In this document: one piece after another, positions 33,951-38,705 of the stretch
How the letters are laid out: each line of letters begins with the position of its first letter
Numbering within the stretch: the first letter of the stretch is position 1
DNA from: Fibrobacteria bacterium
Lineage (GTDB): Bacteria; Fibrobacterota; Fibrobacteria; UBA11236; JADFYW01
Assembly (NCBI GenBank): GCA_965261055.1
Contig: OZ253440.1
Span: 1,201,639-1,265,638 of the forward strand
Direction of reading: 5' to 3'
DNA length: 64,000 nucleotides
Position numbers and translations under genes: made by a program
The notes under the pieces: generated by a model
The model's database searches: none
Seen by the model: only the letters and a program-made list of their open reading frames with translations
Told to the model about the DNA's origin: nothing

Positions 33951-36900
33951 TCAACGTATAAAGAACCCAAATCCTGATGTTTTTGTAGAATCAAAAATAG
34001 ATGTCGCTGTAACGCGAACTAATCCAGCAGAAACGGTTCTCAACAATCCATTATTATCAATTGTAGCTTTAGTTGAGTCACTAAGGGACCATATTACATC
34101 TTGCGATACGCCACTGTCAGCGATAATAGACATTGCAAATTGGATAGTAGCACCGATAGCATGGGACGTCCCAACAGAATTTATATCAAATCGTGTAATT
34201 CTAGGTGGAGCTGTAATTAAAATTTCTACCGATGCTAATTTTGTCACATTGAAAGAAGATCTTACTACAATTGCTGTTGTTCCTTCTGCTATTCCCGTCA
34301 CAAGCCCATTGTTGTCAACCGTAGCTACACTTGGATCATTTGATGACCAAGTTACTGCATCCGAAGCTCCATCTTCCGTTGCAACTGTCACAGTTAAATT
34401 TCCTGTTCTAGTAGCCTTTAGAGTCAACTGAGCAGGCGAAACTGATACTGCAGTAACTTCAGGGGTTAATGTAACTGCAATTAGGGATGTAGCTGTTTTG
34501 GTGCCATCAAACACAGATGTAACTGTAATAATCGCTGTTCCTGCACTTCTTGCGGTTATAAGTCCAGTAGTTGTAACGGTAACTACACTTGTATCACTTG
34601 ATGACCAACTTACTGCATCCGAGGCTCCACCTTCCGTCACAACCATTGCTGTTAATTGCTGATCGTTAACAGCGAGGATTATGGAAGAAGGCATTGATAC
34701 TGAAATAACCTTAGGAGGTAAGGTCACTGTAATTGTGGATGTAGATGTTTTGGTGCCATCAAACACAGATGTAACTGTAATAATCGCTGTTCCTACTCCT
34801 ATTGTGGTTACAAGTCCAGTAGTTGTAACTGTAGCTACACTTGGATTACTTGATGACCAGCTTACTGCATCTGATGCTCCACCTTCCGTCACAACGTTAG
34901 CTGTTAATTGCTGACTTTGAGAAACCACTAGAGATAGAGTGAAAGGAGAAACTGATAATCCACTAACCCGAGGGGGTAAGGTCACTGTAACTACGGATGT
35001 AGATGTTTTGGTACCATCAAACACAGATGTAACTGTAATAGTTGATGTTCCTGCTCCTATTGCAGTTAGAAGTCCAGTAGTTGTAACTGTAGCTACACTT
35101 GGATTACTTGATGACCAGCTTACTGCATCTGATGCTCCACCTTCCGTCACAACCATTGCTGTTAATTGCTGACTTTGAGGAATCACTAGAGATAGAGTGA
35201 AAGGAGAAACTGATAATCCACTAACCCGAGGGGGTAAGGTCACTGTAACTACGGATGTAGATGTTTTGGTACCATCAAACACAGATGAAACTGTAATAGT
35301 CGATGTTCCTGCTCCTATTGCAGTTAGAAGTCCAGTAGTTGTAACTGTAGCTACACTTGGATTACTTGATGACCAGCTTACTGCATCTGATGCTCCACCT
35401 TCCGTCACAACCATTGCTGTTAATTGCTGACTTTGAGGAATCACTAGAGATAGAATGGAAGGAGAAACTGATAATGAAGTAACCCGAGGGGGTAAGGTCA
35501 CTGTAACTACGGATATAGATGTTTTGGTACCATCAAACACAGATGAAACTGTAATAGTCGATGTTCCTGCTCCTATTGTGGTTACAAGTCCAGTAGTTGT
35601 AACTGTAGCTACACTTGGATTACTTGATGACCAACTTACTGCATCCGAGGCTCCACCTTCCGTCACAACGTTAGCTGTTAATTGCTGACTTTCGTTAACT
35701 CTTAAAGATAGGGTGGGAGGAGAAACTAATAATCCACTAACCCGAGGGGGTAAGGTCACTGTAACTACGGATGTAGATGTTTTGGTGCCATCAAACACAG
35801 ATGTAACTGTAATAGTCGATGTTCCTGCACTTCTTGCGGTTATAAGTCCAGTAGTTGTAACTGTAGCTACACTTGGATTACTTGATGACCAGCTTACTGC
35901 ATCTGATGCTCCACCTTCCGTCACAACCATTGCTGTTAATTGCTGACTTTGAGGAATCACTAGAGATAGAGTGAAAGGAGAAACTGATAATCCACTAACC
36001 CGAGGAGCTAAGGTCACTGTAACTACGGATGTAGCCGTTTTGGTACCATCAAACACAGATGTAACTGTAATAGTCGATGTTCCTGCTCCTATTGCAGTTA
36101 CAAGTCCAGTAGTTGTAACTGTAGCTACATTTGGATCACTTGATGACCAACTTACTGCATCTGATGCTCCACCTTCCGTCACAACCATTGCTGTTAATTG
36201 CTGACTTTGAGAAACCACTAGAGATAGAATGGAAGGAGAAACTGATAATGGAATAACCTGAGGTGATAAAGTCACTGTAACTACAGATGTAGATGTTTTG
36301 GTACCATCAAACACAGATGTAACTGTAATAGTCGATGTTCCTGCTCCTATTGCAGTTAGAATTCCAGTAGTTGTAACTGTAGCTACATTTGGATCACTTG
36401 ATGACCAACTTACTGCATCCGAGGCTCCACCTTCCGTCACAACGTTAGCTGTTAATTGCTGATTTTCGTTAACTCTTAAAGATAGGGTGGGAGGAGAAAC
36501 TGATAATCCACTAACCCGAGGGGGTAAGGTCACTGTAACTACGGATGTAGTCGTTTTGGTACCATCAAATACAGATGTAACTGTAATAGTCGATGTTCCT
36601 GCTCCTATTGTGGTTACAATTCCAGTAGTTGTAACTGTAGCTACATTTGGATCACTTGATGACCAACTTACTGCATCCGAGGCTCCACCTTCCGTCACAA
36701 CGTTAGCTGTTAATTGCTGATTTTCGTTAACTCTTAAAGATAGGGTGGGAGGAGAAACTGATAATCCACTAACCCGAGGAGATAAGGTCACTGTAACTAC
36801 GGATGTAGTCGTTTTGGTACCATCAAATACAGATGTAACTGTAATAGTCGATGTTCCTGCTCCTATTGTGGTTACAAGTCCAGTAGTTGTAACTGTAGCT

Positions 36901-38705: not shown

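Follow-up and report, generated by a model that had tools for sequence, protein, structure and literature searches.

Evidence for recombination among the in-frame Big_2 repeats of a predicted lipoprotein gene in a Fibrobacterota-like bacterium

We analyzed a stretch of 64,000 nucleotides from contig OZ253440.1 (hereafter the window), in which a minus-strand gene, gene A, encodes a predicted lipoprotein built of tandem Big_2 Ig-like domains, most of them specified by 258-bp repeats. Our analysis indicates that the repeat array of gene A, together with that of its neighboring paralog, gene B, has been remodeled by recombination. We think it probable that gene A encodes a lipid-anchored envelope rod of 18 Big_2 domains, 12 of which lie in recombining repeats, and that the protein is a Periscope-like variable-length stalk or a fibrillar-adhesin-like lipoprotein. 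In the order in which they are translated, the domains of gene A run from a diverged group (D1-D4) through the DNA repeats (D5-D16) to a second diverged group (D17-D18):

33951..38705, minus strand: gene A, 1584-aa predicted lipoprotein with a GTG start and 18 tandem Big_2 Ig-like domains (open reading frame (ORF) and translation)
38658..38705, minus strand: signal peptide of gene A with the lipobox-like end (V/M)KRFILLFISLLLTY-C, read from the translation
37560..38657, minus strand: D1-D4, membrane-proximal diverged Big_2 domains (Pfam stretches), outside the DNA repeat delimited by Tandem Repeats Finder (TRF)
34470..37559, minus strand: array of gene A, units A5-A16, 12 in-frame units, 11 of them of 258 bp and A16 of 252 bp
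34722..37043, minus strand: core of the array, units A7-A15, pairwise identity 87-97%, exact direct repeats up to 162 bp
33954..34469, minus strand: D17 and D18, membrane-distal diverged Big_2 domains (translation, identity matrix)

TRF reported an array of period 258 in gene A at 34278-37466 (12.4 copies, 89% matches, 0% indels), one of four such arrays (periods 255-258) that it detected across the window, and phasing of the units on the protein linkers showed that each unit corresponds to one 86-aa Big_2 domain with a short Pro-containing linker. A first inspection of the letters and their translations, made without database searches (the sequence-only reading), had described at least 12 such in-frame units, on which TRF and the protein phasing agree, and had placed them correctly to within ~50 bp. 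Its estimate that the units are about 95% identical was too high, since in the core an identity of 95-97% is reached only by some pairs (A8/A9, A11/A14, and A13/A14), and the edge units A5, A6, and A16 are 72-90% identical to the other units. The diverged unit that follows the array, A17 (the unit of D17), is 63-66% identical to the core units. At an offset of one unit the mean identity is 90.7%, and offsets of three and four units are slightly favored; no clean higher-order repeat period was found within the array of gene A, in contrast to a third Big_2 gene of the window, gene C. At the protein level, amino acids vary at 51 of the 86 unit positions.

Evidence that the array has changed comes from its comparison with gene B, which as assembled is broken into ORFs at 30133..32736 and 29185..29874:

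29185..32655, minus strand: gene B, paralog of gene A, 13 Big_2 domains and 1156 aa once three single-base insertions are removed
29704..31506, minus strand: array of gene B, units B5-B11, seven units
37428..38547 in gene A and 31375-32494 in gene B, minus strand: tract of 1120 bp that is identical in the two genes (0 differences, pairwise alignment)

In gene B, TRF found 7.7 copies of period 258 at 29512-31489, and the seven units into which they resolve replace the approximately six copies counted earlier. The units at the edges match between the paralogs (A5 and B5, and likewise A16 and B11, at 99.6-100%; A17 and B12 at 99%), yet between these matching edges gene A has ten internal units and gene B five, and the internal units B6-B10 are 79-94% identical to the units of gene A, none exceeding 94%. 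Such closely matching edges around different interiors show that both the number and the composition of the units changed during the history of the A/B pair, so that the sequence-only reading was justified in taking the different repeat counts of the two duplicated genes as an illustration of change, although the contrast is one of 12 versus 7 units. In addition, B7 and B8 carry a segment, WFSSNIGVVVMSNTGRIFGKG, that is absent from the rest of the window, and no donor for it was found elsewhere in the window.

The two genes belong to a segmental duplication that BLAST bounds at 29089-32870 (B) and 33855-38927 (A), and their divergence is very uneven. Differences are numerous upstream and over the first ~50 codons, and the mature N-termini read CGGDSS... 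in one paralog and CNEDTF... in the other. The residues directly after the lipobox Cys (GGDSSVADSSGVV vs NEDTFVADFSSGIA, at 38610-38660 and 32560-32610, respectively) could, by their difference, affect lipoprotein sorting. At the 3' end, the pair is ~98% identical. One neighbor of the identical 1120-bp tract is the strongly diverged 5' end, and the other is the array. If the divergence is taken to be 1.8%, as in the 3' flank, the probability of finding no difference in 1120 bp is ~2e-9, so that the tract shows the paralogs to have undergone recent gene conversion. We also observed that, at the protein level, the divergence between A and B is highest at the two ends of the protein. At the distal end, D18 of A and D18 of B (33954-34211 vs 29188-29445) differ by nine nonsynonymous and no synonymous changes (Nei-Gojobori). 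Positive selection on this domain, which the count might suggest, was not retained, given that the count is not significant under neutrality (P ~0.075, from site counts); the pattern, non-significant alone, is compatible with a diversifying tip.

The units themselves point in the same direction. Their nucleotide alignment is a patchwork in which short segments, each present in two to four variants, are combined differently from unit to unit. For the PHI (pairwise homoplasy index) test the order of the sites was permuted 2000 times, and no permutation (0 of 2000) matched the compatibility of the data, whether for A5-A16, A7-A15, B5-B11, or the pooled set. The Hudson-Kaplan minimum number of recombination events (Rmin) was 14 for A5-A16, over an alignment of only 258 bases, and 17 when the units of A and B were pooled. 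The longest exact direct repeats measure 162 bp within gene A, including repeats between units three apart, and 168 bp within gene B, and exact repeats between the internal arrays of the two genes reach up to 93 bp. Exact tracts of this size are long in view of the lengths usually regarded as necessary for homologous recombination in bacteria. All units of the array are multiples of 3 bp, so that whole domains would be gained, lost, or recombined in frame by in-register exchange. Taken together, the mosaic units, the PHI test, the Rmin values, and the conversion tract show that recombination has remodeled the arrays of both genes. The earlier statement that the array is prone to recombination is thus well founded, given the exact repeats up to 162 bp, the in-frame units, the PHI result, and an Rmin of at least 14.

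A further expectation, that the repeats be more alike within a gene than between genes, as under concerted evolution, was borne out in part. Within genes the internal units are 89.5% identical, against 85.8% for units of different genes (107 of 10000 label permutations), but with B7 and B8 left out the values become 90.0% and 88.9%, a difference that is not significant. This weak concerted evolution within genes indicates that A and B have a common pool of unit variants and are not separately homogenized. The ratio of nonsynonymous to synonymous substitution rates (dN/dS) among the units is ~0.7 (Nei-Gojobori; dN 0.084 and dS 0.118 in the core), which is much above that of typical enzymes and fits stalk domains under relaxed or diversifying constraint.

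The protein of gene A matches the Pfam Big_2 model (PF02368) in 17 stretches with 583 bits (E=1e-179; cut-off 22.8), and the same hidden Markov model also matches the proteins of genes B and C. The Pfam scan of the gene A protein found only Big_2-type families and no other domain, anchor, sorting tail, or adhesin domain, and the protein terminates with D18. At the other end, the N-terminus reads (V)KRFILLFISLLLTYC-GG, that is, a positive n-region and a hydrophobic core followed by Cys, a signal that is consistent with a lipoprotein whose predicted lipidated N-terminus is Cys16. Lipobox-like signals (K/R, hydrophobic stretch, and C) occur in 5 of the 6 Big_2 genes of the window; in the four genes other than A they end in LIFNC-GG, LIFGC-GT, FIVNC-GD, and LLTYC-NE. 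An AlphaFold model of units A8-A10 (pLDDT, the predicted local distance difference test, 95) has three all-beta domains, and each unit is accordingly modeled as an Ig-like beta-sandwich. Foldseek matched this model to tandem Ig-like arrays, including the LigA variable region (8gyr), and also to the S-layer proteins SbsB, SbsC, and Sap, the phage SU10 tail protein, NUP210, and straight cadherin arrays, the last with TMq up to 0.69. The PDB chains closest in sequence are Big_2 arrays of bacterial teneurin-like proteins. The gene A protein would on this basis be rod-shaped. An Ig-like domain is roughly 3.5-4 nm long, and if this length is assumed for each domain, the rod would measure about 65-70 nm in A and about 45-50 nm in B. 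On the opposite strand of the C-terminal coding parts we noticed antisense ORFs of 161 aa (33946-34431, plus strand, in A; 29180-29665, plus strand, in B), which are probably spurious by-products of the Thr/Ser/Val-rich coding strand.

We propose that the N-terminal lipid anchors a rod of 18 tandem Big_2 domains at the envelope and that RecA-type recombination between misaligned units, by unequal crossing-over and gene conversion, acts both within A and with B. Homologous recombination of this kind would keep the 258-bp units similar and at the same time reshuffle their variants. With units of 86 codons and shared tracts of up to 162 bp, in-register exchange would lead to the gain or loss of whole domains, or to the swapping of segments, with the frame kept. 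Such exchange of units would alter the length of the stalk and its surface epitopes, while the domains near the membrane (D1-D4) and those at the distal tip (D17-D18) would be retained. Within this proposal, the hypervariability of the array is plausible on the basis of the mosaicism, the conversion tract, and the difference between the paralogs, and a role as an S-layer protein or adhesin, as suggested earlier, is likewise plausible. By contrast with what the sequence records of past exchange, the lipidation and surface exposure of the protein, its adhesive role, and a copy number that varies today among cells or strains are expectations of the proposal.

Several points weigh against this proposal. 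The identity of the core units (87-97%) is below the near-100% of the most variable Periscope Proteins, a class in which variation is reported to scale with repeat identity (PMC8201768), and homogenization within genes is weak once B7 and B8 are excluded. The residues at lipobox position -1 (Y, N, G) differ from the classical ones of E. coli, the protein may be surface-exposed or periplasmic, and the Pfam scan found no non-Big_2 'business' domain at the distal end. Finally, the protein, genome, and metagenome collections contain no second strain and no close homologue in which a present-day variation in copy number could be seen. The array might instead be static, a relic of domains once amplified in an envelope protein of spacer or S-layer-like type, with its copy number now fixed and its mosaicism owed to old and rare conversions. 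This would agree with a last homogenization that was not very recent, as indicated by the 3-13% by which the core units differ (up to 28% for the edge units), and with the dS of 0.12 among core units, the internal B units that are at most 94% identical to any A unit although the flanks are 98-100% identical, and the S-layer proteins among the Foldseek matches. Yet the exact tracts of 127-162 bp in non-adjacent units far exceed the expectation at 10% divergence and point to recent exchange, and the identical A/B tract shows that the recombination machinery was recently active on the locus. We regard a static array as a serious but doubtful explanation.

Other readings of the locus turn on the interruptions of genes B and C, both of which are split as assembled. 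The genes and changes concerned are:

4463..9717, minus strand: gene C, third Big_2 lipoprotein gene, ~20 domains, period 258
30155 (G), 29990 (T), and 29882 (T), minus strand: three +1 insertions in gene B, within 274 bp and adding three bases in total

The three insertions in gene B jointly restore the reading frame, and gene C falls into two ORFs owing to a deletion of 2 bp (between 7805 and 7804) and an insertion of 1 bp (7747), both of which sit in the middle copy of a 99%-identical 516-bp higher-order repeat. All indels of B and C are confined to repeats, and none is in a homopolymer. Moreover, each of the three insertions in gene B sets the alternative allele of a neighboring variable column beside the unit's own (C/G, C/T, and T/A type), for which the random expectation is 24% each and ~0.014 for all three, and the insertion in gene C likewise repeats the other allele of the variable site next to it. 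Elsewhere in the window, ~28 non-repeat genes have full-length family matches, and runs of nine A occur inside genes with no frameshift. The duplication of alternative alleles suggests that the indels of B and C are most likely consensus errors arising from mixed reads of differing unit variants, and that neither gene is a true pseudogene. The cause of these errors could be mis-mapping between repeats or real array heterogeneity in the sampled population, the latter of which would support hypervariability. More broadly, the only frameshifts of the assembly fall in near-identical repeats and resemble artefacts, which makes it advisable to check against the reads any 'pseudogene' call for a gene with near-identical repeats in a long-read metagenome assembly.

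If the double-allele indels did record population heterogeneity, genes A, B, and C might be actively exchanging Big_2 cassettes, a form of surface variation by segmental gene conversion in a free-living or gut Fibrobacterota-like bacterium; we rate this extension as unlikely. It is quite unlikely, in turn, that the assembly is at fault, with the units of A and B miscounted or misordered through collapse, expansion, or chimerism, which would make the difference of 12 versus 7 units technical. A locally degraded consensus is indeed suggested by five indels that occur only in the two arrays whose repeats are most alike and that bear the signature of mixed alleles, and the source is an organism without close relatives, probably represented by a metagenome assembly. 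However, the arrays are just 2-3 kb long and their units differ by 3-28%, so that long reads would span them and k-mers would separate most units; the frame of A is unbroken over all 1584 codons; each of the two genes has unique flanks distinct from the other's; and the non-repeat genes of the window have full-length family matches, while nine-A homopolymers inside genes leave the reading frames undisturbed. A very unlikely reading is that B, and perhaps C, are frameshifted pseudogenes that form an archive from which unit segments are donated into an intact expression site, gene A, with antigenic variation as the outcome. The interruption of B and C beside an intact A, the conversion tract and mosaic segments common to A and B, and the nine nonsynonymous changes to none in D18 would suit such a system, but the indels have the form expected of a mixed-read consensus and not of decay, the insertions in B restore the frame, and B retains an upstream region, a start codon, and a signal peptide of its own. 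In addition, the segment specific to B7 and B8 is not in A, and two or three copies are far below the numbers of known cassette systems. We also rejected a phase-variable contingency locus or invertible promoter: no convincing or significant inverted repeats were found around the upstream regions, neither A nor B has a long homopolymer within it or nearby, and the insertions in B lie outside homopolymers.

All six Big_2 genes of the window, gene A included, lie on the minus strand (gene C, 17367-19529, 19711-21888, 22117-23184, gene B, and gene A). DNA-level repeats are found only in A, B, and C; the other three genes are diverged, and their longest exact repeats are no more than 45 bp. Two of these three form a tandem paralog pair with lipobox-like signals, and the gene at 22117-23184 has three Big_2 domains and an annotated N-terminus with neither signal peptide nor lipobox. 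The related array that had been noted at 4500-9650 is that of gene C, where TRF found 18 copies of period 258 at 4995-9646 (76% matches), and the 515/516-bp periodicity is present as well, in three higher-order copies (~99% identical) at 6970-8530. Because its exact repeats, of up to 389 bp, are longer than any in the array of gene A, gene C is a better candidate for copy-number instability than the array of gene A that had been flagged. Two further features accompany the A/B pair:

32762..33706, minus strand: glycosyltransferase-family-9-like (GT9-like) ORF between B and A, weak Pfam match (23 bits), single full copy
38750..38778, minus strand: sigma-70-like promoter candidate TTGACA-17-TACATT, 45 bp upstream of the start of gene A (consensus scan)

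The last ~105 nt of the GT9-like ORF (32764-32870) are repeated upstream of gene A at 38824-38927, a copy that marks the upstream limit of the segmental duplication that gave rise to the A/B pair. Promoter-like and terminator-like matches in the region are no commoner than in shuffled sequence.

The window is chromosomal, has 35% G+C, and carries intact housekeeping genes that include RNase G, GDH, IspG, AmtB, TrmD, IlvC, LeuB, RNase HII, fumarase, PriA, GS-III, PBP1A, and RmlA/B. PBP1A (57904-60159) has one 100% database match, and its next best matches are just 45-54% identical, the named ones being from Fibrobacterota, which suggests that the source is a deep lineage of the FCB group near Fibrobacterota without sequenced close relatives. 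The fumarase gene adjoining the locus has its best matches, at 70% identity, in Bacteroidota, and provided no close relative for a comparison of synteny. For the N-terminal 385 aa of gene A, the best match was 35% in a collection of 5.8 billion proteins and 36% in JGI metagenome contigs; the best N-terminal match was discarded as a relative of the locus, its genomic context being unrelated, and the 90% cluster of the gene A protein holds only gene A and a fragment of gene B. No structured RNAs or tRNAs were found in the window. An AT-rich region of ~1.45 kb (48556-49994) has no ORF of at least 50 aa on either strand and no credible Rfam match, an unusual gap in a window that elsewhere codes densely, and may be a decayed gene, a regulatory region, or an RNA region. 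On the plus strand, nearly all 2-kb bins show a negative GC skew (cumulative -4.2), and the minus strand carries most of the genes, which is consistent with a single replichore in which the minus strand is leading; near-zero skew is seen only in the bins of the A and B arrays.

The locus is of a known type, that of the variable-length bacterial stalk protein, and its closest concept is that of the Periscope Proteins, its closest architecture that of LigA/LigB. Among more distant systems, the size-variable lipoproteins of mycoplasmas (Vsa, Vlp) have in-frame tandem repeats whose number sets the length of the protein and its shielding, and these repeats are short low-complexity peptides that are coupled to dedicated on/off switches. 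Gene A resembles them in its predicted lipid anchor and in-frame tandem repeats; it differs in that its repeats are folded 86-aa Ig domains and that no switch was found. The inverse autotransporters intimin and invasin are also surface proteins of Gram-negative bacteria, with a reach set by 2-47 bacterial Ig-like repeats (PMC9704523), but their N-terminal beta-barrel anchor and C-terminal lectin-like tip are absent from gene A according to the Pfam scan.

The lipoproteins LigA and LigB of Leptospira consist of 12-13 tandem Big_2 domains (PMC7821625). In ligA and ligB the 5' parts are almost the same before the genes differ, much as A and B share their identical tract of 1120 bp, and there is evidence of recombination between the genes of the lig family as well (PMC7821625); the match of the gene A model to the LigA variable region adds a likeness in fold. 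However, the identical region of ligA and ligB includes the upstream sequence, whereas A and B diverge most in the upstream region and at the mature N-terminus. The domains of Lig 'are not repeats' (PMC7821625), unlike the 18 domains of gene A, 12 of which are repeats at the DNA level, and the window itself holds 'Lig-like' and 'repeat-like' versions of one protein family. Gene A is not a Lig orthologue, considering its 24% identity to LigA over the structural alignment, its Fibrobacterota-like host, and the absence of a Lig-like C-terminal extension.

The Periscope Proteins (SasG/Aap, Rib/alpha C, Sgo_0707, CdrA, and Esp) are single-chain proteins attached to the envelope, with a stalk of globular domains of more than 50 residues, mostly of Ig-like E-set folds and joined by short Pro-containing linkers, and their repeats have high DNA identity and form in-frame units that are open to gain and loss by homologous recombination (PMC8201768, PMC9704523). 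Gene A shares the stalk, the linkers, and the in-frame repeats, its single-chain protein is predicted to be attached to the envelope, and its 12 units of 86 aa exceed 50 residues; in DNA identity (89% matches by TRF, 87-97% in the core) they are at the lower end of the class. Big_2, for its part, is a recognized stalk domain of fibrillar adhesins (PMC8286594). The differences concern the two ends of the protein and the similarity of its repeats. Gene A has a predicted N-terminal lipid, which would make the C-terminus the distal end, in place of a C-terminal LPXTG or secretion-system anchor; it has no distinct adhesive tip domain, its two terminal domains being diverged Big_2 domains; and its repeats are less alike than those of the most variable members. 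The class is defined by variation in length among strains, and in the Fibrobacterota-like locus the comparison is that of two paralogs, with 12 and 7 units. If the length of the array does vary, the Periscope-type strategy would extend to a lipid-anchored Big_2 protein and to a deep uncultured branch near Fibrobacterota, whose surface biology is scarcely known.

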